This document shows, piece after piece, positions 1 to 26,319 of a DNA stretch of 26,625 nucleotides (the first letter of the stretch is position 1; each line of letters starts with the position of its first letter). The notes below the pieces were generated by a model. The model was given only the letters and a program-made list of their open reading frames with translations, was not told the origin of the DNA and did not search any database. The position numbers and the translations under genes were made by a program. The stretch is from a virus (Duplodnaviria > Heunggongvirae > Uroviricota > Caudoviricetes): the IMG/VR virus record IMGVR_UViG_2531839448_000003; one strand, given 5' to 3'.

Positions 1-1143
1 CTATGCTGTTTTGATATCTACGATAATCCAGTCTTTACCACGATCATCATTGTATCGGTCGGTCATTTTTCTGGATTTATGGCCTAACAATTTTTGCGTA
101 TCCAGACCCTGTTCCCGATATAACCGTTCTGACAGAGATCGCTGCTCATGAAATGTGGGCGCAGTTCCTTGCTCCCATTTTATGCCACATTTTTCCCGGG
201 CCTTTTTAAAAGCCGTTGTCAGAGTATTTGCAGAAACCTGGTCTCCTCTGTTTGCTTGAGAGGTAGTGTGACGGTAATGGACCAGATATTTACTAACAAC
301 AGCATCCCTGCACTGAGATATAACTTCACGAAGGGTAATATTCAGAGCATCGCATTTCAGGTTAAGCGGAATAGCAAGTTTTGAACCGGTTTTTTCCTGA
401 GTAATGTGCAACATGTCGTCCCATATATCAGAGAATTTCAAATTGCAGATATCGCCTAAACGTTGTCCAGTAACAAGAGCAAGTAGCATGCCGCATTTTA
501 AATAGGGCTGCCGTCTGCTTACGCTTTCAAATATTGCCTGCCATTCGGGCAGTGACAATCTTTGGCGGTTTACTCGATTTCGCGGTTGTTTTGTTGCCTG
601 CGCTGGGTTAAATCCTGGCGGAACATGTCCTGCGTGTTGTGCTTCTTTGAAGACGTCGATCAACACCATTCTCACGACTTGCGCCATCCTGTTATGACCT
701 TCAGCCTTTACAGCATCAATTATTTCGGCAATATCAAGTGCGGTAATATCCTTGAGGTGTTGCATTCCACAATGCTCACGGAAAAGACGAATGGGTTTGC
801 CTTTTTGCCGATAGGAGTTGGGTCTTAGTTCATTATGTTGCAGCCTGTCCTCCTGGATAGAAATATATTTATCAAGCCATTCTGTCACCGTAATGTCTGA
901 GCGCCTGCCTTTCATTCTTTCCAGACGCTCATTGACGCTTAATATTTGTCGGGTACGTTGTTCAGCAATAATGGTATTTGCTTCAGTAGCAACTTGTTTT
1001 GCTTCATTCTCATCAGTTCCTAAGCTATGAAAACGACCGGATAGTGGATGTTTGTATTGCCAATATACCTTTCCGGTTCGCTTATCTAATTTGCAATATA
1101 AATTGGGTATAGAGATTTTGTGAGATCGGGGTCTAGCAGCCAT
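1..1143 (-). CDS. int: Phage tyrosine integrase
   Basis: 380-aa ORF, ATG at 1141-1143 (rc), stop at 1-3; lambda-family integrase-like sequence; overlaps the excisionase ORF by 11 nt as in int/xis pairs; attachment site would lie left of the window. Confidence 0.9.
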   Translation of the reverse strand: MAARPRSHKISIPNLYCKLDKRTGKVYWQYKHPLSGRFHSLGTDENEAKQVATEANTIIAEQRTRQILSVNERLERMKGRRSDITVTEWLDKYISIQEDRLQHNELRPNSYRQKGKPIRLFREHCGMQHLKDITALDIAEIIDAVKAEGHNRMAQVVRMVLIDVFKEAQHAGHVPPGFNPAQATKQPRNRVNRQRLSLPEWQAIFESVSRRQPYLKCGMLLALVTGQRLGDICNLKFSDIWDDMLHITQEKTGSKLAIPLNLKCDALNITLREVISQCRDAVVSKYLVHYRHTTSQANRGDQVSANTLTTAFKKAREKCGIKWEQGTAPTFHEQRSLSERLYREQGLDTQKLLGHKSRKMTDRYNDDRGKDWIIVDIKTA

Positions 1144-5733: not shown

Positions 5734-6150
5734 TTATTCTTTTTTAGGTTTGCCACCGGATGGTTTCTCATGGGTAATAATAGTATATCCATGTGTCATC
5801 GCATGGGCTATTAAAAAAGCATCTGCTTTTTCATGGCTTGCAAAATCAAACTTTGCCTTTTCGGTAACATCTAATTTAGTTGACCAATTTATTAACTTTG
5901 CATAATTTTCTATTGAACTATGCTCATCTTCGAAGAATGATGATGGTAACTCTTCTTTAATCCATTTACACAATGGATCATCTTTTGCACATAGTTCTTT
6001 TTTTACAGCATTAATGCTATAAATCAGACCATTAATGTGTAAAGCGAGAAGAAAATCCCAAAATATTTTGCAATAATTGAAGTTATATGCAAAGTTTTTT
6101 GCCTCTATGAAGACATTACTATCAATTAAGAATTTTCCATTATGAATCAT
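5734..6150 (-). CDS. PIN-like (DUF4411-type) putative nuclease, candidate toxin/effector
   Basis: 138 aa; N-terminal FLIDSNVFIEA and C-terminal ADAFLIAHAMTHGYTIITHE resemble PIN-fold acidic motifs; AT-rich; start overlaps the upstream stop as ATGA at 6147-6150. Confidence 0.65.
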   Translation of the reverse strand: MIHNGKFLIDSNVFIEAKNFAYNFNYCKIFWDFLLALHINGLIYSINAVKKELCAKDDPLCKWIKEELPSSFFEDEHSSIENYAKLINWSTKLDVTEKAKFDFASHEKADAFLIAHAMTHGYTIITHEKPSGGKPKKE

Positions 6151-7286
6151 AGAGATTCTCGTTTTTTATAAAATTCAACAACTGTATCTGCTTTTACATT
6201 TAGCAGTACGCCTGCTTCCCTTAATGGTAATTGTTGAGACATTGCTTTGGAAATTATTATATTCGTAAGTTTTGGACTGTTACGAACAGGTAATGTGTTA
6301 AAGAAAGAACCACCATTGGATTCTTTTTTGGGCTTATTGTAAGCTTGATCTTTAATTATCTCCAAAGTGTTTCTTTCTATCAAATCTAATTGTAACGCTT
6401 TGATTGCACAAGCGAAATCACTAACCTTAAATAACTTAGAAACCTCTTTTACTCGATAATAATTATTATCGCTGGATGCATTAAGCCAGAAAGATTTGAA
6501 GAGATTATCAGGCATTAAGATTTCAGCAGCAACTTTATTACAAAAAGATTCTATGTTTTTTTCTGTGTCCCACCCAGAGACTCCATCGACTCCAAGCCAA
6601 AGATGAGCCACCTCATGAAATAATGTAAATACCTGCGCAGATAACGCGTCCGAGCTATTTACAAAAATGATCGGAGCAACGCTATCAGATATACAGAAAC
6701 CACGAAACTCTCGCGTGTCAAGTTTTCTTTTATTATTATTACCCACAACACCATTCTTGAAAACTAATACGCCAGTGTCTTCTATTAGTTTTGCCACTTT
6801 AGAAAAATAGCTCTCAAAAGTGACATTTTTTATCTCTTTTTGTATATCAAAATGTATTGTGTTTGCTATGTCTGTAGCAACAACCTTATAATTTAATTTT
6901 CTATTAAATTTAAATTTACCAATAAAATCGAGTGGATCATCATTACCATTTTCTCTTAAATAGTCTTTGTACCACTCAAGTTTATATTCTATATCATAGT
7001 AAACATCAAAAAAATCTTTTCCTAACTCACGGCTATTTATAGCTTGCCTTAAGTCAGGGATCTTGGGTTTGGCTGGAGTTGGTGGCGTTTCAAGAAATAA
7101 AAAACCGAAAGGGATTCCTCCAATTTTTGCCAGTTTTTCTGCTGCGGATTTACTTACCACTCCGTTAAGAAATTTATTAATCTTTTTGGGCATGACTTGG
7201 TCAGCAAGAGTTTCGATAGAAACTCCTTGAGAATTTGCTATCCAATCAATCATCTTCCTAGACAATTGAAATTCAACCGCTGCCAT
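6147..7286 (-). CDS. XRE-type HTH plus ImmA/IrrE-family (HExxH) metallopeptidase domain protein
   Basis: 379 aa; N-terminal HTH-like segment; single HExxH motif in FTLFHEVAHLWLG typical of ImmA/IrrE (COG2856 / peptidase M78); AGGTGA Shine-Dalgarno; AT-rich; immediately downstream of cI on the same strand. Confidence 0.72.
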   Translation of the reverse strand: MAAVEFQLSRKMIDWIANSQGVSIETLADQVMPKKINKFLNGVVSKSAAEKLAKIGGIPFGFLFLETPPTPAKPKIPDLRQAINSRELGKDFFDVYYDIEYKLEWYKDYLRENGNDDPLDFIGKFKFNRKLNYKVVATDIANTIHFDIQKEIKNVTFESYFSKVAKLIEDTGVLVFKNGVVGNNNKRKLDTREFRGFCISDSVAPIIFVNSSDALSAQVFTLFHEVAHLWLGVDGVSGWDTEKNIESFCNKVAAEILMPDNLFKSFWLNASSDNNYYRVKEVSKLFKVSDFACAIKALQLDLIERNTLEIIKDQAYNKPKKESNGGSFFNTLPVRNSPKLTNIIISKAMSQQLPLREAGVLLNVKADTVVEFYKKRESL

Positions 7287-7415: not shown

Positions 7416-8108
7416 CTACCCATGCTTTCTATATGTCTGCGGCATGCTCCCGATGACTTTCCCGAAGATGAACACGCGGTTCATCTCGTCTTTCTCGATC
7501 GGGTCCCACGGTGAGTAGCTCTTGTTATCAGAGATAACCAGCAGCTTATCCTTCATCATTTGCAGGCGTTTTACATGGGCGGTGTCGTCATACAGAAACG
7601 CATAGATACCATCACCGTCGAAAGATTTAACCGTGATATCAACGAACAGCAGATCACCTGGTTCGATCGTTCCTGACATGCTGTCACCACGCACGTTAAT
7701 GATGCGGATATTTTCCGCCTTCCTGCCATCGAACATGTGACGAGCATCGTCAAACGAGTATTCAACCGAGCGTAGAACTTCTACAAACTCACGGTTGATT
7801 ACACCCGGCCCGGCACTGACTTCTATATCAAGAACGTCAATTTTGAAGTATTTGGAATGGCTGACAGCAGGCTTCCCTGATTGTTGACCGTCATTTCTCA
7901 TCGGGCCTATGCCTGAAGAGAGCCATTCTGTTCGAACACCCAATGCATTAGCTATTTCAACAATTTTTGTTGAGCCGCGCGCGTTGCCGCTTGTCAGTCT
8001 CCAGATTGTGGGTTGAGCTACGCCAGACGCCTTTGCAAGAGCGCCTTGAGACATTCCAGATTGTTCCATCGCTAGATTTAAGCGATCAGCAAGAGTTTCT
8101 TTTTTCAT
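7416..8108 (-). CDS. cI: CI-type prophage repressor (HTH plus LexA-like S24 autopeptidase domain)
   Basis: N-terminal HTH (LAMEQSGMSQGALAKASGVAQPTIWRL) and C-terminal S24 motifs (GDSMSGTIEPGDLLFVD, HVKRL); track start 8144 is TTG, first ATG at 8106-8108 gives 230 aa; TATAAAT lies just upstream, suggesting a leaderless pRM-like transcript. Confidence 0.85.
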   Translation of the reverse strand: MKKETLADRLNLAMEQSGMSQGALAKASGVAQPTIWRLTSGNARGSTKIVEIANALGVRTEWLSSGIGPMRNDGQQSGKPAVSHSKYFKIDVLDIEVSAGPGVINREFVEVLRSVEYSFDDARHMFDGRKAENIRIINVRGDSMSGTIEPGDLLFVDITVKSFDGDGIYAFLYDDTAHVKRLQMMKDKLLVISDNKSYSPWDPIEKDEMNRVFIFGKVIGSMPQTYRKHG

Positions 8109-8218
8109 AAGTTTTAATTTATACGCTTGCGTATTGATGGTCAAAACACGTTTTGCTATTGCTTGGATTAATACTCATTGCTATTATTCATTCATTGCAA
8201 TACCAATAGGAATTGATA
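8109..8218. promoter_or_regulatory. Putative oR operator region with divergent pRM/pR
   Basis: Intergenic region between divergent cI and cro containing TTGCTATTGC repeats and TTGAtggTCAA / ATTGC...GCAAT palindromes. Confidence 0.55.
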
Positions 8219-13949: not shown

Positions 13950-15032
13950 TTAGAACTGGTAAACCATACCTACAGCAACGATATCATCGGTAGCAACGCC
14001 AGATGCTTTCGTGAAATCGCTCTTATCAATCAGGTTGATTTTGTAATCAACAAAAGTGGACATATTTTTGTTGAAGTAATAGGTTGCACCTACATCAATA
14101 TATTCAACCAGGTCCTGATCACCCCACGCACCCAAGTCTTTTCCTTTAGATTGCAGGTAAGCAACGGACGGACGCAGACCGAAGTCGAACTGATATTGTG
14201 CAACTACTTCGAAGTTTTGTGCTTTGTTGGCAATATGGTTATTACCAAAAACAGTCATGTTCTGGGTTTCAGAATAGGTGGTAGCCAGATAGATGTTGTT
14301 CGCATCATATTTCAGACCAGCTGCCCATACTTCAGCATTTTGACCAGATGCATTCAGGCTGTTGTTACCGTAGATAACCTGATTATTAGTGCGGTCAGAT
14401 TTAGCATAGGTTGCACCTACACCGAATCCTTCATACTCATAAGTAGTGGAGAAACCGAAACCATCACCATTAGCTTCAGTTACGTCAGTGCGGTCATTTT
14501 TACCCTGATACTGAGCAGCAAAGTTCAGACCATCAACCAGACCAAAGAAGTCGTTGTTACGATAAGTTGCAACACCAGTGGTGCGACCAGTCATGAACAC
14601 ATCTGTTTGGGTCCAGGTATCGCCACCGAATTCTGGCAGAACGTCAGTCCACGCACCGATGTCATATGCTACACCGTAGTTACGGCCGTAATCGATTGAG
14701 CCGTAGTCCCCGAATTTCAGGCCTGCAAATGCAAGACGGGTTTTGTCTTTGGAGGAGCCTTGAGATTCAGCGCGGTTGCCTTTGAATTCATATTCCCACT
14801 GACCGAAACCAGTCAGTTGATCGTTGATTTGGGTTTCACCTTTGAAGCCAAGACGGGCATAAGTAGTATCACCATCATCTGCATCATTAGAGGAGAAGTA
14901 GTGCTTGGCATTAACTTTCCCATATAGATCCAGCTTGTTACTGTCTTTATTATAAATTTCAGCTGCCTGAGCAGACATCGCCATCAGTACTGATGCAGCT
15001 ACAGCAGAAATTGCCACTGTTAATTTTTTCAT
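13950..15032 (-). CDS. nmpC: OmpC/NmpC-family outer-membrane porin
   Basis: 360 aa with signal peptide ([23 protein letters not shown]|AEIYNKD), porin-like sequence ending in ...VGMVYQF; intact. Confidence 0.92.
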
Positions 15033-15605: not shown

Positions 15606-15821
15606 ATGAAATCCATGGATAAGTTAACAACGGGTGTCGCCTATGGCACCTCAGCAGGTAGTGCCGGTTACTGGTTTTTACAGCTGCTCGATAAAGTCAC
15701 GCCCTCACAGTGGGCAGCAATAGGTGTGCTGGGTAGCCTGGTATTTGGCCTGCTGACGTACCTGACAAACCTTTATTTCAAGATTAAAGAAGATAAGCGC
15801 AAGGCTGCGAGAGGTGAATAA
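15606..15821 (+). CDS. essD: Holin, phage-21 S-type pinholin with dual start
   Basis: 71 aa with the M1-K-S-M4 dual-start motif ([24 protein letters not shown]...), resembling S21 as recalled; one TM-like segment and a charged C-terminus; TAATG overlap with the endolysin. Confidence 0.9.
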
Positions 15822-16251
15822 TGCCTCCATCATTACGAAAAGCCGTTGCTGCTGCTATTGGTGGCGGAGCAATTGCTATAGCATCAGTGTTAATCACTGG
15901 CCCAAGTGGTAACGATGGTCTGGAAGGTGTCAGCTACATACCATACAAAGATATTGTTGGTGTATGGACTGTATGTCACGGGCATACAGGAAAAGACATC
16001 ATGCTCGGTAAAACGTATACCAAAGCAGAATGCAAAGCACTCTTGAATAAAGACCTTGCCACTGTCGCCAGACAAATTAACCCGTACATCGAAGTCGATA
16101 TACCGGAAACAACGCGCGGCGCTCTTTACTCATTCGTTTACAACGTGGGTGCTGGCAATTTAGACTGGCCCCCTGAATCTCCAGACAACCAATATCACTT
16201 ATTTAAGTGATAGTCTTAATACTAGTTTTTAGACTAGTCATTGGAGAGCAG

Positions 16252-16617
16252 ATGATTGATGTCTTAGGACCGGAGAAACGCAGACGGCGTACTACACAGG
16301 AAAAGATCGCTATTGTTCAGCAGAGTTTTGAACCGGGAATGACAGTCTCCCTTGTTGCCCGGCAACACGGTGTGGCAGCCAGCCAGTTATTTCTCTGGCG
16401 CAAGCAATACCAGGAGGGAAGTCTTACTGCTGTGGCCGCAGGAGAACAGGTCGTTCCTGCCTCTGAACTTGCTGCCGCCATGAAGCAGATTAAAGAACTC
16501 CAGCGCCAGCTCGGCAAAAAAACGATGGAAAATGAACTCCTTAAAGAAGCCGTTGAATATGGGCGTGCAAAAAAGTGGATAGCGCACGCGCCCTTATTGC
16601 CCGGGGATGGGGAGTAA
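16252..16617 (+). CDS. insC: IS2 OrfA (InsC)
   Basis: ATG at 16252 ([24 protein letters not shown]...); the track ORF begins further upstream. Confidence 0.9.
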
Positions 16618-17480
16618 GCTTAGTCAGCCGTTGTCTCCGGGTGTCGCGTGCGCAGTTGCACGTCATTCTCAGACGAACCGATGACTGGAAAGATGGTCGC
16701 CGCAGCCGTCACTCAGATGATACGGATGTGCTTCTCCGTATACACCATGTTATCGGAGAGCTGCCCACATATGGTTATCGTCGGGTATGGGCGCTGCTTC
16801 GCAGACAGGCCGAACTTGATGGTATGCCTGCGATCAATGCCAAACGTATTTACCGGATCATGCGCCAGAATGCGCTGTTGCTTGAGCGAAAACCCGCTGT
16901 ACCGCCATCGAAACGGGCACATACCGGCAGAGTGGCTGTGAAAGAAAGTAATCAGCGATGGTGCTCTGACGGGTTCGAGTTCCGCTGTGATAACGGAGAA
17001 AAACTGCGAGTCACGTTCGCGCTGGACTGCTGTGACCGTGAGGCACTGCACTGGGCGGTCACTACGGGCGGCTTCAACAGTGAAACAGTACAGGACGTCA
17101 TGCTGGGAGCGGTGGAACGCCGTTTCGGCAACGAGCTTCCGGCGTCTCCAGTAGAGTGGCTGACGGATAATGGTTCATGCTACCGGGCTAATGAAACACG
17201 GCAGTTTGCCCGGATGTTGGGGCTTGAACCGAAGAACACGGCGGTGCGGAGTCCGGAGAGTAACGGCATAGCAGAGAGCTTCGTGAAAACGATAAAGCGT
17301 GACTACATCAGTGTCATGCCCAAACCAGACGGGTTAACGGCAGCAAAGAACCTTGCAGAGGCATTCGAGCATTATAACGAATGGCATCCGCATAGTGCAC
17401 TGGGTTATCGCTCGCCACGGGAATATCTACGGCAGCAAGCCAGTAATGGGTTAAGTGATAACAGGTGTCTGGAAATATAG
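16575..17480 (+). CDS. insD: IS2 OrfB transposase (InsD), DDE family
   Basis: 301 aa ([23 protein letters not shown]...), overlapping orfA in a different frame as in IS3-family elements. Confidence 0.9.
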
Positions 17481-17650
17481 GGGCAAATCCACAATTTCAG
17501 AACATCGACGCTTCTTCGCAAAATAAACCAGGGCGATATCAAAGGCGCATGTGATCAGCTACGTCGCTGGACATATGCTGGCGGTAAGCAATGGAAAGGT
17601 CTCATGACTCGTCGTGAGATTGAGCGTGAAATCTGTTTGTGGGGTCAGCA

Positions 17651-18112
17651 ATGAACAGAGTAACCGCGATTATCTCCGCTCTGGTTATCTGCATCATCGT
17701 CTGCCTGTCATGGGCTGTTAATCATTACCGTGATAACGCCATTACCTACAAAGCCCAGCGCGACAAAAATGCCAGAGAACTGAAGCTGGCGAACGCGGCA
17801 ATTACTGACATGCAGATGCGCCAGCGTGATGTTGCTGCACTGGATGAAAAATACACGAAGGAGTTAGCTAATGCGAAAGCTGAAAATGATGCTCTGCGTG
17901 ATGATGTTGCCGCTGGTCGTCGTCGGTTGCACATCAAAGCAGTCTGTCAGTCAGTGCGTGAAGCCACCACCGCCTCCGGCGTGGATAATGCAGCCTCCCC
18001 CCGACTGGCAGACACCGCTGAACAGGATTATTTCACCCTCAGAGAGAGGCTGATCACTATGCAAAAACAACTGGAAGGAACCCAGAAGTATATTAATGAG
18101 CAGTGCAGATAG
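17651..18112 (+). CDS. Rz: Rz i-spanin
   Basis: ATG at 17651 overlapping the endolysin stop; 153 aa with N-terminal TM segment ([23 protein letters not shown]) and coiled-coil-like remainder. Confidence 0.85.
17871..18053 (+). CDS. Rz1: Rz1 o-spanin lipoprotein, embedded in Rz in another frame
   Basis: 60 aa with lipobox (LVVVGC) and Pro-rich body ([16 protein letters not shown]). Confidence 0.8.
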
Positions 18113-18143: not shown

Positions 18144-18437
18144 TTATTGTGAGCAATACACACGCGCTTCCAGCGGAGTATAAATGCCTAAAGTAATAAA
18201 ACCGAGCAATCCATTTACGAATGTTTGCTGGGTTTCTGTTTTAACAACATTTTCTGCGCCGCCACAAATTTTGGCTGCATCAACAGTTTTCTCCTGTCCA
18301 ATTCCCGAAACGAAGAAGTGATGGGTGATGGTTTCCTTTGGTGTTACTGCTGTCGGTTTGTTTCCAACAGTAAACGTCTGTTGAGCACATCCTGTAATAA
18401 GCATTGCCAGAGCGGCAGAAAACAACATTTTTTTCAT
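18144..18437 (-). CDS. bor: Bor-family outer-membrane lipoprotein
   Basis: ATG at 18435-18437 gives 97 aa (MKKMLFSAALAMLITGCAQQTFTV...) resembling lambda Bor as recalled; lipobox LITGC. Confidence 0.88.
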   Translation of the reverse strand: MKKMLFSAALAMLITGCAQQTFTVGNKPTAVTPKETITHHFFVSGIGQEKTVDAAKICGGAENVVKTETQQTFVNGLLGFITLGIYTPLEARVYCSQ

Positions 18438-18799
18438 CTTATTATCCTGCATTGTTAAAAACGGCAGAATCCTATGTGACAACAATTAAACGATAGTTAA
18501 ATGGATTGATGAAAATTAAAACTATATAGGTGTACGCTCAGACTATTGGAGGAAGTTGGGGACACTCAGAATCCTGTGGAATGAAATAAACCGGTCTATC
18601 CGTCTATTACCCTTTTAGCTGCGCTGTATCGTCGCCGTATTCCCGCATTAACCATGACCGTAGCCCGACGGGGAATTCCTTCTGCGTGAGTGTGCGGGAA
18701 TAATCAAAAACGATGCACACCGGGTTTTACTGTGCTGACAGACGCAGGGTTACCCTCATAGTCGCTTTTCCGGTGCGATGGTGGAAGAAACCGGGATGT

Positions 18800-18994: not shown

Positions 18995-19193
18995 GAGGTT
19001 GCCCCGTATTCAGTGTCGCTGATTTGTATTGTCTGAAGTTGTTTTTACGTTAAGTTGATGCAGATCAATTAATACGATACCTGCGTCATAATTGATTATT
19101 TGACGTGGTTTGATGGCGTAGATGCACGTTGTGACATGTAGATGATAATTATTATCATTTTGCGGGTCCTTTCCGGCGATCCGACAGGTTACG

Positions 19194-19205
19194 GGGCGGC
19201 GACCT
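19194..19205 (+). other. cosN cohesive-end site
   Basis: ...CCGACAGGTTACG|GGGCGGCGACCTCGCGGGTTTTCGCTATTTATGAAAA matches the lambda right-end/left-end junction as recalled. Confidence 0.8.
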
Positions 19206-19368
19206 CGCGGGTTTTCGCTATTTATGAAAAATTTCCGGTTTAAGGCGTTTCCGTTCTTCTTCGTCATAACTTAATGTTTTTATGTAACCGTCTCATTTAA
19301 ACCGTCTTTCGCCTCCCTTTCCTGTTTCCGATACTAATGTCCATTTTCGCAGTAAAGGGACATTTAAG

Positions 19369-20019
19369 ATGAATGCACGAAAAGCGGTACTGGCAGACAA
19401 TCCGGAATTGATCCTGCGTGTGCTACAGCTGAGATTTGACGAGTCACTGTCGTACCCGCGCATTTCTGCGCAGACCGGTGTCAGCAAAACCGCCATTTTT
19501 TCTCTGGTGAGGCGATTTCACCAGGTATTCACTGACTGGCCTCTTTCCGGTGAATATTCCTGCGGGCAACTGGCCCGGGCTCTTTTCCCGGGGCGATACC
19601 CTTCAGCCCCGACCGTGACTCAGCCTGTGAAAGCAGAGAAACCCCGCCGGAACCGATTTTCACCGGAGTTTAAATGGAGACTGGTTCAGCAAACTCTTTT
19701 ACCCGGTGCCTGTGTCGCACAAATAGCTCGAGAGAATGGAATTAACGATAACCTGCTCTTTAACTGGCGGCATCTCTGGCGTAACGGTGGCCTGCAACCG
19801 CCCGGCGAACATGAAACATCGCTACTTCCCGTGACGTTAACTCCGGAGCCGGATAATAAAATCCCGGCACCAGTGCAGATACCTGAACAGATAAATACAC
19901 TGCCAGACAGTCTGTGCTGCGAGCTGGTTCTGCCGGCCGGAACTCTCAGGCTGAAAGGTGAACTGACACCGGCGTTATTACAGACACTTATCCGCGAAAT
20001 GAAAGGGAGCAGCCACTGA
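19369..20019 (+). CDS. IS66-family Orf1 (TnpA-like)
   Basis: 216-aa first ORF of the element; its stop overlaps the orf2 start (ATGA/TGATG). Confidence 0.75.
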   Translation: MNARKAVLADNPELILRVLQLRFDESLSYPRISAQTGVSKTAIFSLVRRFHQVFTDWPLSGEYSCGQLARALFPGRYPSAPTVTQPVKAEKPRRNRFSPEFKWRLVQQTLLPGACVAQIARENGINDNLLFNWRHLWRNGGLQPPGEHETSLLPVTLTPEPDNKIPAPVQIPEQINTLPDSLCCELVLPAGTLRLKGELTPALLQTLIREMKGSSH

Positions 20020-20366
20020 TGATATCTCTCCCTGCCGGTTCGCGTATCTGGCTGGTTGCCGGTATCACCGATATGCGAAATGGCTTTAACGGCCTGGCCT
20101 CAAAAGTTCAGAACGTCCTGAAGGATGACCCGTTCTCCGGGCATCTGTTCATCTTCCGCGGACGCCGGGGTGACCAGATAAAAGTGCTGTGGGCTGACAG
20201 TGACGGACTGTGCCTCTTCACCAAACGCCTGGAGCGGGGCCGCTTCGTCTGGCCGGTCACCCGCGATGGAAAGGTTCACCTTACTCCGGCTCAGTTGTCC
20301 ATGCTTCTCGAAGGCATCGACTGGAAGCACCCGAAACGAACGGAACGCGCTGGCATCCGCATATAA
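20019..20366 (+). CDS. IS66-family Orf2 (TnpB-like)
   Basis: 115 aa (MISLPAGSRIWLVAGITDMRNGFNGLA...), typical IS66 orf2 size. Confidence 0.85.
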   Translation: MISLPAGSRIWLVAGITDMRNGFNGLASKVQNVLKDDPFSGHLFIFRGRRGDQIKVLWADSDGLCLFTKRLERGRFVWPVTRDGKVHLTPAQLSMLLEGIDWKHPKRTERAGIRI

Positions 20367-20385
20367 CCCGTTGTAAAGTGAGGAT

Positions 20386-21955
20386 ATGGACACCTCACTT
20401 GCTCATGAGAATGCCCGCCTGCGGGCACTGTTGCAGACGCAACAGGACACCATCCGCCAGATGGCGAAATACAACCGCCTGCTCTCACAGCGGGTGGCGG
20501 CTTATGCTTCCGAAATCAACCGGCTGAAGGCGCTGGTTGCGAAACTGCAGCGCATGCAGTTCGGTAAAAGCTCAGAAAAACTTCGCGCTAAAACCGAACG
20601 GCAGATACAGGAAGCCCAGGAGCGAATCAGCGCACTTCAGGAAGAAATGGCGGAAACGCTGGATGAGCAATATGACCCGGTACTGCCATCCCCCCTGCGC
20701 CAGTCTTCAGCCCGTAAGCCGTTACCGGCCTCACTTCCCCGTGAAACCCGGGTCATCCGGCCGGAAGAGGAATGCTGCCCGGCCTGTGGTGGTGACCTCA
20801 GTCCTCTGGGGTGTGATGTGTCAGAGCAACTGGAGCTTATCAGCAGCGCTTTTAAGGTTATCGAAACACAACGTCCGAAACTGGCCTGTTGCCGGTGCGA
20901 CCATATCGTGCAGGCACCAGTACCTTCAAAACCCATTGCACGCAGTTATGCCGGAGCGGGGCTTCTGGCTCATATCGTCACCGGGAAGTATGCAGACCAT
21001 CTGCCGTTATACCGCCAGTCAGAAATATACCTTCGTCAGGGCGTGGAACTGAGTCGCGCCACGCTGGGGCGCTGGACCGGTGCCGTTGCTGAACTGCTGG
21101 AGCCGCTGTATGACGTGCTGCGCCAGTATGTGCTGATGCCCGGTAAAGTCCATGCGGATGATATCCCCGTTCCGGTCCAGGAGCCGGGCAGTGGTAAAAC
21201 AAGAACTGCCCGGCTGTGGTCTATGTCCGTGATGACCGTAACGCCGGTTCACAGATGCCCCCGGCGGTCTGGTTCGCGTACAGCCGGACCGGAAAGGTAT
21301 CCATCCACAGAATCACCTGGCCGGTTACAGCGGTGTGCTTCAGGCAGATGCTTACGGTGGTTACCGGGCGTTATACGAATCCGGCAGAATAACGGAAGCC
21401 GCGTGTATGGCCCATGCCCGGAGAAAAATCCACGATGTGCATGCAAGAGTGCCAACCGACATCACCACGGAAGCCCTGCAGCGTATCGGTGAACTGTATG
21501 TCATCGAGGCAGAAGTCCGGGGATGTTCAGCAGAACAGCGTCTGGCAGCAAGAAAAGCCAGAGCGGCTCCACTGATGCAGTCACTGTATGACTGGATACA
21601 GGAACAGATGAAAACACTGTCGCGTCACTCGGATACGGCAAAAGCGTTCGCATACCTGCTGAAACAGTGGGAGGCCCTGAACGTGTACTGCAGTAATGGC
21701 TGGGTGGAAATCGACAACAACATCGCAGAGAACGCCTTACGGGGAGTGGCCGTAGGCCGGAAAAACTGGCTCTTCGCGGGTTCCGACAGCGGTGGCGAAC
21801 ATGCGGCGGTGTTGTACTCGCTGATCGGCACATGCCGTCTGAACAATGTGGAACCAGAAAAATGGCTGCGTTACGTCATTGAGCATATCCAGGATTGGCC
21901 GGCAAACCGGGTACGCGATCTGTTGCCCTGGAAAGTTGATCTGACCTCTCAGTAA
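20386..21955 (+). pseudogene. IS66-family transposase (Orf3/TnpC) interrupted by frameshift(s)
   Basis: N-terminal 20386-~21219 and C-terminal 21335-21955 are in different frames; a sensible reading ([22 protein letters not shown]) runs in the third frame between ~21219 and ~21284, implying single-base losses in homopolymer runs (TGG, CC). Confidence 0.75.
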
Positions 21956-22092
21956 ATATCAATACGGTTCTGGCGAGCCGCTTACGTTTTTATTTAAAAT
22001 ACCCTCTGAAAAGAAAGGAAACGACAGGTGCTGAAAGCGAGCTTTTTGGCCTCTGTCGTTTCCTTTCTCTGTTTTTGTCCGTGGAATGAACA

Positions 22093-22612
22093 ATGGAAGT
22101 CAACAAAAAGCAGCTGGCTGACATTTTCGGTGCGAGTATCCGTACCATTCAGAACTGGCAGGAACAGGGAATGCCCGTTCTGCGAGGCGGTGGCAAGGGT
22201 AATGAGGTGCTTTATGACTCTGCCGCCGTCATAAAATGGTATGCCGAAAGGGATGCTGAAATTGAGAACGAAAAGCTGCGCCGGGAGGTTGAAGAACTGC
22301 GGCAGGCCAGCGAGGCAGATCTCCAGCCAGGAACTATTGAGTACGAACGCCATCGACTTACGCGTGCGCAGGCCGACGCACAGGAACTGAAGAATGCCAG
22401 AGACTCCGCTGAAGTGGTGGAAACCGCATTCTGTACTTTCGTGTTGTCGCGGATCGCAGGTGAAATTGCCAGTATTCTCGACGGGCTCCCCCTGTCGGTG
22501 CAGCGGCGTTTTCCGGAACTGGAAAACCGACATGTTGATTTCCTGAAACGGGATATTATCAAAGCCATGAACAAAGCAGCCGCGCTGGATGAACTGATAC
22601 CGGGGTTGCTGA

Positions 22613-22638
<26 letters not shown>
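22093..22638 (+). CDS. nu1: Terminase small subunit Nu1
   Basis: 181 aa matching lambda Nu1 as recalled (MEVNKKQLADIFGASIRTIQNWQEQGMPVLRGGGKGNEVLYDSAAVIKWYAERD...). Confidence 0.93.

Positions 22639-26319
<3,681 letters not shown>

Follow-up and report, generated by a model that had tools for sequence, protein, structure and literature searches.

A 2.7-kb IS66-family insertion sequence (IS) sits inside cosB, the packaging signal of a lambda-like prophage, in the window analysed here (the whole stretch of 26,625 nucleotides). The host is a lambda/21-like prophage beside icd in a porcine-ETEC-type E. coli. We regard it as probable that a recent transposition brought the element into I1, the IHF-binding spacer of cosB, and duplicated 8 bp of the target, that packaging initiation is impaired in cis, and that the event belongs to neutral prophage decay.

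Insertion site within the cos region

The sub-sites of cos and the boundaries of the insertion are as follows.

19164-19170, + strand: GGGTCCT (lambda -30 to -24), at the position of cosQ in lambda; intact, the same bases being present in lambda DE3 and in phages Turner and PhiR68_2
19194-19205, + strand: cosN cohesive-end sequence GGGCGGCGACCT (lambda bp 1-12); intact, the same 12 bases being annotated 'cos site' in phage DE3
19211-19243, + strand: I2 segment (lambda bp 18-50); carries a private T>A change at window 19231 (bp 38)
19243-19258, + strand: R3, the terminase small-subunit site closest to cosN (lambda bp 50-65); intact, core GGCGTTTCCGTTCT at 19244-19257
19259-19283, + strand: left-hand part of the interrupted I1 (IHF) region (lambda bp 66-90); the IHF-consensus match crosses the break
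19276-19283, + strand: left copy of the target-site duplication, GTTTTTAT, at the end of the left I1 remnant (lambda bp 83-90)
19284-21985, + strand: IS66-family insertion sequence, 2702 bp (intact relatives, 2704 bp)
21986-21993, + strand: right copy of the target-site duplication, GTTTTTAT (lambda bp 83-90)
22012-22027, - strand: R2, the inverted R site (lambda bp 109-124); intact, an exact inverted copy of the R1 core, shifted 2,710 bp from R3 and cosN
22053-22068, + strand: R1 (lambda bp 150-165), by sequence match; intact, shifted along with R2

The left and right flanks were joined and aligned to phage DE3 as the lambda reference. Window position 19194 corresponds to lambda bp 1 (cosN), the left flank (19194-19283) matches lambda bp 1-90 with a sole mismatch at bp 38 (T>A), and the right flank resumes at 21994, equivalent to lambda bp 91, and runs on into Nu1. 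Removal of the 2702 bp at 19284-21985 together with one copy of GTTTTTAT restores the sequence of lambda DE3 bp 1-700, from which it then differs by three substitutions and by no indel. The break point therefore lies between lambda bp 90 and bp 91, where the net sequence added is 2,710 bp, and the gap between R3 and R2 grows from ~45 bp to ~2.75 kb. The first-pass annotation had read the two flanks as the lambda left end from cosN continuing into Nu1, and had placed the insertion at about bp 83-90 between R3 and R2 near the IHF site, with R2, R1 and the terminase genes moved about 2.7 kb from cosN; the alignment bears out each of these points and puts the insertion inside cosB, not outside it. 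Its description of the element as separating cosN from Nu1 holds as far as the separation goes but understates the arrangement, in which cosN keeps R3 and I2 beside it and loses only R2, R1 and part of I1.

Identity to lambda is unbroken over bp 1-37 and -30 to -24, and the cosN-R3 spacing is native, with no indel between the two. The bp 38 substitution falls outside the critical I2 block at bp 30-35, both this block and the extent of I2 being defined in PMC4856287. The coordinates of R3 (bp 50-65) and the order R3-I1-R2-R1, with R2 inverted, follow PMC9026076, and I1 lies between R3 and R2 (PMC4856287, PMC4669245). I1 was placed here by consensus match and this published layout, the best IHF-consensus match (bp 79-91, minus strand, one mismatch) spanning the insertion point; the R2/R1 mutant phenotypes used below are background from lambda genetics. 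The mapping of I1 and the tests of R2/R1 mutants are reportedly the work of Xin and Feiss in 1993 and of Cue and Feiss in 1992. The insertion leaves cosQ, cosN, I2 and R3 contiguous and places R2, R1, Nu1 and A 2,710 bp downstream, so that a cosB of ~120 bp with a contiguous I1 between R3 and R2 is absent here. The insertion spares cosN, I2 and R3, the last being the most critical site, and this is a counterpoint to any packaging defect.

The IS66-family element and its genes

The genes of the element are listed in order.

19369-20019, + strand: tnpA, intact IS66 accessory protein of 216 aa; Pfam HTH_Tnp_1; NCBIfam NF038385 (283.6 bits; cut-off, 150)
20019-20366, + strand: tnpB (115 aa, IS66 accessory protein), intact; Pfam TnpB_IS66, 136.8 bits; NCBIfam NF033819, 128.9 bits
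20386-21955, + strand: tnpC (IS66 DDE transposase), interrupted as assembled; NCBIfam NF033517 and alignment to the intact copy L007

By its gene and domain content the element is confirmed as a three-gene IS66-family IS: tnpA, tnpB and tnpC are consecutive on one strand, with the tnpA stop and tnpB start overlapping (TGATG), the NF038385, NF033819 and NF033517 models all score above their cut-offs, and Pfam finds TnpB_IS66, LZ_Tnp_IS66, zf-IS66, DDE_Tnp_IS66 and DDE_Tnp_IS66_C. The family had been named earlier from the letters alone, and these equivalogs and domains agree with it. The element begins with GTAACCGTCTCA and ends with CGAGCCGCTTAC, as do other E. coli copies, in keeping with the GTAA termini and the 2702-bp length first proposed. 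Its terminal inverted repeats are imperfect (left GTAACCGTCTCATTTAAACCGT; right, as reverse complement, GTAAGCGGCTCGCCAGAACCGT); both start with GTAA (left GTAACCGTCTCA..., right GTAAGCGGCTCG...) and agree at ~15 of 22 positions. The 8-bp duplication GTTTTTAT noted in the first reading is present on both sides, and five other copies of the element each have an 8-bp duplication of their own.

As assembled, the element appears to lack the intact DDE transposase expected of an autonomous IS. Alignment with L007, the copy on plasmid pW1316-1 to which the element is 99.85% identical, places two 1-bp deletions within the DDE domain of tnpC, after 21217 (GGG>GG) and after 21283 (CCC>CC), and these account for the element being 2 bp short of 2704. 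The Pfam DDE_Tnp_IS66 match breaks at profile positions 91 and 112 and that to NF033517 at 171 and 189, and the tnpC pieces appear as open reading frames at 20386-21492, 21216-21392 and 21335-21955. Both deletions may be real or may be sequencing errors, the latter because both lie in 3-nt homopolymers of a 2011 draft assembly. An element with a frameshifted tnpC would stay mobilisable in trans, and near-identical copies number in the hundreds in E. coli. A scan for promoters and terminators across the IS gave counts no different from those in shuffled sequence, and a terminator-like hairpin at its right end (21965-21980) was not significant.

Empty site, relatives and distribution

The prophage of the porcine E. 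coli strain ETEC1731, which adjoins icd and is otherwise 99.97% identical, has the uninterrupted site. An empty site in a related strain had been proposed as a check, to be sought by PCR, and was found here by BLAST comparison, in which two segments overlap by the duplicated bases. This identity, the uninterrupted site and the overlap together argue that the insertion is not a chance arrangement. The junction (31-mer AACTTAATGTTTTTATGTAACCGTCTCATTT) occurs in none of the 5,426 complete E. coli genomes, and none of the metagenome contigs covered by an exact 31-mer search contains it. Since the ETEC1731 site is empty and the junction is absent from these complete genomes, we take the insertion to be recent and confined to a single draft assembly, made in 2011. 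An exact-protein look-up led to the single contig AFEB01000020.1 of that assembly, GCA_000225245. The window rests on this one 2011 draft.

It is very improbable that the 2011 assembler put the IS into cos by repeat collapse or scaffolding, even though there is only one public contig, the IS is multicopy in related strains, homopolymer lengths differ between the assembly and its closest relative, and the interior of the IS shows two 1-bp deletions that look suspicious. Both ends of the element coincide exactly with canonical IS termini, with a perfect 8-bp target duplication on both sides, and its flanks rejoin to an exact cos; a misjoin is an unlikely source because it would not make a target-site duplication. 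The contig also crosses an IS2-like element, whose placement is corroborated by a complete genome.

Across E. coli chromosomes the lambda-type cos-Nu1 junction is common, and its intact form is present in 3,964 of the 5,426 complete genomes. An IS66-family element interrupts or deletes part of the cos-Nu1 interval in three other genomes, in all of them elsewhere (lambda bp 183-190). A hotspot for IS66 elements at cos was considered and rejected, as there are only these three other genomes, with a different site, against 3,964 intact junctions.

Terminase genes and the proposed effect on packaging

Downstream of cos, both subunits of a lambda-type terminase are full-length.

22093-22638, + strand: Nu1 (terminase small subunit, 181 aa), intact; Pfam Phage_Nu1, 333 bits, profile positions 1-164 of 164
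22613-24538, + strand: A (terminase large subunit, 641 aa), intact open reading frame; GpA_ATPase and GpA_nuclease on the called gene

The Nu1 ATG at window 22093 equals lambda bp 191, as in the published lambda layout (among PMC9026076, PMC4856287, PMC4669245).

Published work describes a hairpin model for packaging initiation, and treats R3 as the most critical site and R1 as accessory (PMC9026076, PMC4856287, PMC4669245). In this model, normal initiation proceeds through an IHF-induced hairpin at I1 that brings R3 and R2 together, whose juxtaposition allows a TerS (Nu1) dimer to dock and TerL to be anchored on cosN. With I1 split and neither R2 nor R1 nearby, the initiation complex would be expected to assemble poorly, and cos cleavage and packaging initiation of the prophage's own DNA would be strongly reduced in cis, while no effect is expected on the production of terminase or on termination at cosQ/cosN. 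R-site mutants of lambda are reported to become IHF-dependent, and the R3/R2 double mutant to be lethal. By analogy with lambda genetics, a cis-acting packaging-initiation defect is likely, and the earlier view that the insertion probably impairs packaging seems reasonable.

We consider it unlikely that the split cos is still largely functional and the insertion nearly silent, with terminase anchored by R3 only, as in the simple cosB of N15, perhaps assisted by looping to R2/R1 2.7 kb off. Such a reading can draw on R3, I2, cosN and cosQ being intact at native spacing, on R3 being the critical site and R1 accessory (PMC4669245, PMC9026076), on N15 relying on one R3, its inverted R ~200 bp away being non-essential (PMC4669245, PMC9026076), and on a lambda yield of ~30% even without IHF (PMC4856287). 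However, lambda TerS is a tight dimer, modelled to dock at both R3 and R2 over the bend at I1, R2 and R1 are both removed and I1 is split, and the 2.7 kb exceeds the N15 rR2 distance more than tenfold. Single R-site mutations are said to suffice to make lambda IHF-dependent, a result attributed to Cue and Feiss in 1992; here, with I1 split and neither R2 nor R1 in place, IHF would be unable to compensate. Nor is there a substitute R site within the IS, where nothing matches the 14-nt R core with up to three mismatches and the only two R-like 7-mer cores are at chance frequency. That the natural allele keeps substantial packaging, via R3-only anchoring or long-range TerS-oligomer looping to the distal R2/R1, we hold to be slightly less likely again; if true, the allele would be a natural intermediate on the way from the complex cosB of the lambda/Monarch type to the simple one of the N15 type.

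Decay of the prophage

An IS2-like element, common to the ETEC1731 prophage, splits the endolysin gene (rrrD), and the prophage was already lysis-defective before the cos insertion. The order of decay is an older IS2-like insertion shared with relatives, followed by the private IS66-family insertion. As the endolysin gene was already broken, the packaging phenotype is largely moot for the source strain, and the cos insertion would represent neutral prophage decay rather than adaptation. The ETEC1731 prophage measures ~48.7 kb from icd to an icd' fragment, and the added 2.7 kb would bring the prophage roughly to the maximum that a lambda head can hold.

The cargo of the prophage includes an iss/bor lipoprotein and an OmpC-like porin, host-benefit genes which might suggest that the insertion was favoured for immobilising the prophage, keeping this cargo or a terminase source without self-packaging; the three other genomes in which IS66-family elements struck or deleted the cos-Nu1 interval could be read in the same way. 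Selected domestication of this kind is nevertheless scarcely credible. Only one assembly carries the insertion and the empty site is kept in close relatives, four cases fit random insertion when cos sites number in the thousands and IS copies in the hundreds, and the older endolysin insertion had already disabled the prophage, leaving nothing to select for.

Under the favoured reading of neutral decay, the prophage offers a clean, datable case of stepwise IS-driven decay in a porcine ETEC-type lineage. For annotation, scoring it as 'intact' from its complete head and terminase genes would be wrong, since the cis-acting packaging signal is split and the endolysin gene broken.

Comparison with known systems

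The closest known elements are the Enterobacteriaceae IS66-family ISs of the IS679/ISCro1 group, reportedly described by Han et al. in 2001 and Gourbeyre et al. in 2010, the type copy of IS679 being that of plasmid pB171; PGAP names close copies 'IS66-like element IS679 family' or 'ISCro1 family'. Like that group it has a length of ~2.7 kb, the order tnpA-tnpB-tnpC with overlapping tnpA and tnpB frames, a DDE transposase with leucine-zipper and zinc-finger modules, GTAA-starting inverted repeats and an 8-bp target duplication. It differs in that the present copy is 2702 rather than 2704 bp with tnpC, as assembled, frameshifted twice, and it is placed here at the family level. Classic IS66 members have three ORFs and GTAAGCG/GTAACCG repeats (PMC12888890).

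The allele resembles the engineered lambda cosB and spacing mutants of the Feiss, Becker and Catalano laboratories in altering the R3-I1-R2-R1 architecture that anchors terminase for cosN nicking, and a cis effect on initiation, not termination, is expected in both (PMC4856287, PMC4669245). Whereas those mutants carry a point mutation, a small cosN-R3 indel or a deletion, this is a natural 2.7-kb insertion in I1 that leaves the cosN-R3 spacing unchanged. Its value for phage biology is minor and lies in parting R3 from I1-R2-R1 with that spacing untouched; in a cosmid, it could probe how far R3 alone supports lambda terminase.

As in the simple (R3-only) cosB of N15 and cos-type PICIs, one R site lies by cosN at the R3 position and the others are distant. 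Unlike this prophage, with its lambda-type Nu1 TerS, N15 has a co-adapted TerS and no IHF site; its rR2 is ~200 bp away (PMC4669245), whereas the distal R sites here are 2.7 kb off, by accident in a decaying prophage. The accumulation of IS insertions is shared with other IS-inactivated lambdoid prophages, such as the EHEC defective pools and the cryptic K-12 prophages DLP12 and Qin with their noh/cos remnants. In contrast to those, the target struck here is a cis-acting packaging signal, not a gene, at an exact site occupied in 0 of 5,426 complete genomes. The insertion is another case of a known type of event, and current understanding is unchallenged by it.

Insertion of an IS66-family element in cosB

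The lambda cohesive-end sequence GGGCGGCGACCT was found at 19194-19205, and window position 19194 therefore corresponds to lambda bp 1; the identical 12 bases carry the annotation 'cos site' in phage lambda DE3. Once 19194-19283 had been spliced to the sequence from 21994 on, the product aligned with the cos-Nu1 region of lambda DE3 over 700 bp, with three substitutions (bp 38, 541 and 654) and no indels. The excised piece consists of 19284-21985 (2702 bp) and one copy of an 8-bp repeat. As the joined flanks rebuild lambda, the insertion point falls at lambda bp 90/91, with bp 83-90 duplicated. The insertion in cosB is real, and the first-pass annotation, which had placed a 2702-bp element with an 8-bp duplication between a lambda left end starting at cosN and a right flank running into Nu1, was essentially right in its interpretation. 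It is unlikely that an assembly artefact placed the element in cos, because a misjoin would not yield exact IS termini, a perfect 8-bp duplication and flanks that rejoin exactly.

Features of the insertion region (window positions)
15821-16164 and 17492-17654, pieces of rrrD flanking an IS2-like element
19244-19257, R3 core (lambda 51-64), located in sequence
19276-19283 and 21986-21993, 8-bp direct repeat GTTTTTAT, from the joined-flank comparison with lambda DE3
19369-20019, tnpA, 216 aa, same strand as tnpB and tnpC; NCBIfam IS66_access_TnpA, 283.6 bits (cut-off 150)
20019-20366, tnpB, 115 aa, same strand as tnpA and tnpC; Pfam TnpB_IS66, NCBIfam IS66_TnpB
20386-21955, tnpC, same strand as tnpA and tnpB; LZ_Tnp_IS66, zf-IS66, DDE_Tnp_IS66, DDE_Tnp_IS66_C
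22012-22027, R2 (lambda 109-124), inverted; 16-mer shared with R1
22053-22068, R1 (lambda 150-165); 16-mer shared with R2

The Pfam and NCBIfam matches of all three genes bear out the proposed IS66-family identity. The ends (GTAACCGTCTCA... left, ...CGAGCCGCTTAC right) are imperfect inverted repeats and start with GTAA, in line with the GTAA-type termini proposed. Five further copies, taken from E. coli genomes, share these ends, and each is bounded by an 8-bp duplication of its own. Classic IS66 members have three ORFs and GTAAGCG/GTAACCG repeats (PMC12888890), a layout and type of repeat matched here. Relative to the intact 2704-bp copy on plasmid pW1316-1, the window copy has two substitutions and two 1-bp deletions; the deletions, after 21217 (GGG>GG) and 21283 (CCC>CC), are in tnpC and break up its DDE domain, at profile positions 91 and 112 in Pfam and at 171 and 189 in NCBIfam, so that tnpC as assembled is a pseudogene. 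Either true mutations or homopolymer errors in the 2011 draft assembly (GCA_000225245.2, contig AFEB01000020.1) may account for these deletions; the differences of this assembly from the closest complete relative are mainly in homopolymer lengths. No identical copy was present in complete genomes among the matches listed. At the right end, a terminator-like hairpin (21965-21980) is followed by a T-run, CTTACGTTTTTATTT, made partly by the right copy of the target duplication; terminator-like sites in the region were not more numerous than in shuffled controls.

Cos anatomy around the break

In lambda, cosB spans about 120 bp in the order R3-I1-R2-R1, with R2 inverted; R3 occupies bp 50-65, I2 about bp 18-50 (bp 30-35 being critical), the IHF site I1 lies between R3 and R2, and the Nu1 ATG is at bp 191 (PMC9026076, PMC4856287, PMC4669245). 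In agreement with the first-pass annotation, the break falls between R3 and R2; the sequence that best fits the IHF consensus WATCAANNNNTTR (bp 79-91, minus strand, one mismatch) spans it. Consequently cosQ (identical to lambda), cosN, I2 and R3 are still contiguous at native spacing, and R2 and R1, along with Nu1 and A (both intact), are displaced by 2,710 bp, close to the 2.7 kb anticipated. No R-like site able to replace R2 was found within the IS. The substitution at bp 38 (window 19231, T>A) turns A4T4 into A5T3 in the A/T tract of I2, between cosN and R3 and outside the critical block bp 30-35. It is common to the near-identical prophage of porcine E. coli ETEC1731; the base is T in lambda and in the free-living phages Turner and PhiR68_2, and the change is private to this prophage lineage.

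Distribution and age of the insertion

The first 19,283 bp and last 4,640 bp of the window match the ETEC1731 chromosome at 99.97% and 99.96%, respectively. ETEC1731 is without the IS, and the duplicated bases are covered by both alignments; its prophage, in essence the same one, has the empty site. The same IS-cos junction was found in none of 5,426 complete E. coli genomes and in no metagenome contig, the uninterrupted cos-Nu1 junction being present in 3,964 genomes, which indicates a recent and private insertion. Cos as a preferred IS66 target was rejected as unsupported: the cos-Nu1 interval contains an IS66-family element in only three other genomes, each time at bp 183-190 instead (duplication GAATGAAC). 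In MSI001 (L001 3283-5986) this lies one base before the Nu1 ATG; 09-00049 (L005 2508-5211) and OkiPb01715 have a single copy whose left flank is the site of a related element in GB089 (L004 2508-5211) and whose right flank is the MSI001 site. Such mixed flanks imply that these two lost ylcI and the whole cos by IS-IS recombination.

The prophage adjoins icd, and its modules for recombination, replication, lysis, head and tail are lambda-like. Its late region carries cargo genes: an OmpC-like porin (13950-15032, minus strand), placed between a Q-like antiterminator and the genes for lysis, and an iss/bor lipoprotein (18144-18485, minus strand) just upstream of cos. The endolysin gene rrrD is interrupted by an IS3-family element with IS2-like ends (TAGACTGGCCCC...GGGGCAAATCCA, about 16165-17491). 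The identical insertion is annotated in ETEC1731 and is therefore older than that in cos; it had already made the prophage lysis-defective. Pseudogenes in ETEC1731 also include a tail-fibre assembly gene and a pin-like recombinase gene close to the right end. Selection of the cos insertion for prophage immobilisation is unsupported, the allele being private and the prophage disabled beforehand; the insertion is an ordinary event, a multicopy IS entering a decaying prophage.

Homology to annotated ETEC1731 genes places an ImmA/IrrE-family metallopeptidase and a DUF4411 protein beside an XRE-type repressor, in 5734-7286 (minus strand) and 7416-8144; this immunity region is unlike lambda cI/cro. 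Homopolymers differ from ETEC1731 at 2835 (T7 versus T6; methyltransferase gene intact in the window, frameshifted in ETEC1731), 5739 (T6 versus T7; DUF4411 gene truncated in the window, 138 versus 170 aa) and 16569 (A6 versus A5, at the slippery site of the IS2-like element), which suggests indel noise in one of the assemblies or in both.

Expected effect on packaging and comparison with known systems

Lambda packaging begins when the terminase small subunit (TerS, Nu1) binds cosB and places the large subunit (TerL) on cosN; in the current model, an IHF bend at I1 brings R3 opposite R2, and a TerS dimer docks across both. Published lambda anatomy ranks R3 as the most critical R site and R1 as accessory. 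Cue and Feiss are said to have found in 1992 that lambda with single R-site mutations becomes IHF-dependent and that an R3/R2 double mutant is lethal. Because R2 and R1 are 2.7 kb away and I1 is split, cooperative assembly is expected to be very weak or to fail, and a cis-acting defect in packaging initiation is predicted. Termination (cosQ, cosN) should stay unaffected, as should terminase synthesis, since antiterminated late transcription should read through the same-orientation IS. Adding 2.71 kb to the ETEC1731 prophage, which spans about 48.7 kb, would give about 51.4 kb, close to the most DNA that lambda can package, about 105% of 48.5 kb. The allele is a modest curiosity only, in that R3 is parted from I1-R2-R1 with cosN-R3 spacing unaltered. 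The split cos may nevertheless keep some residual packaging function, as N15 and cos-PICIs function with an R3-only cosB.
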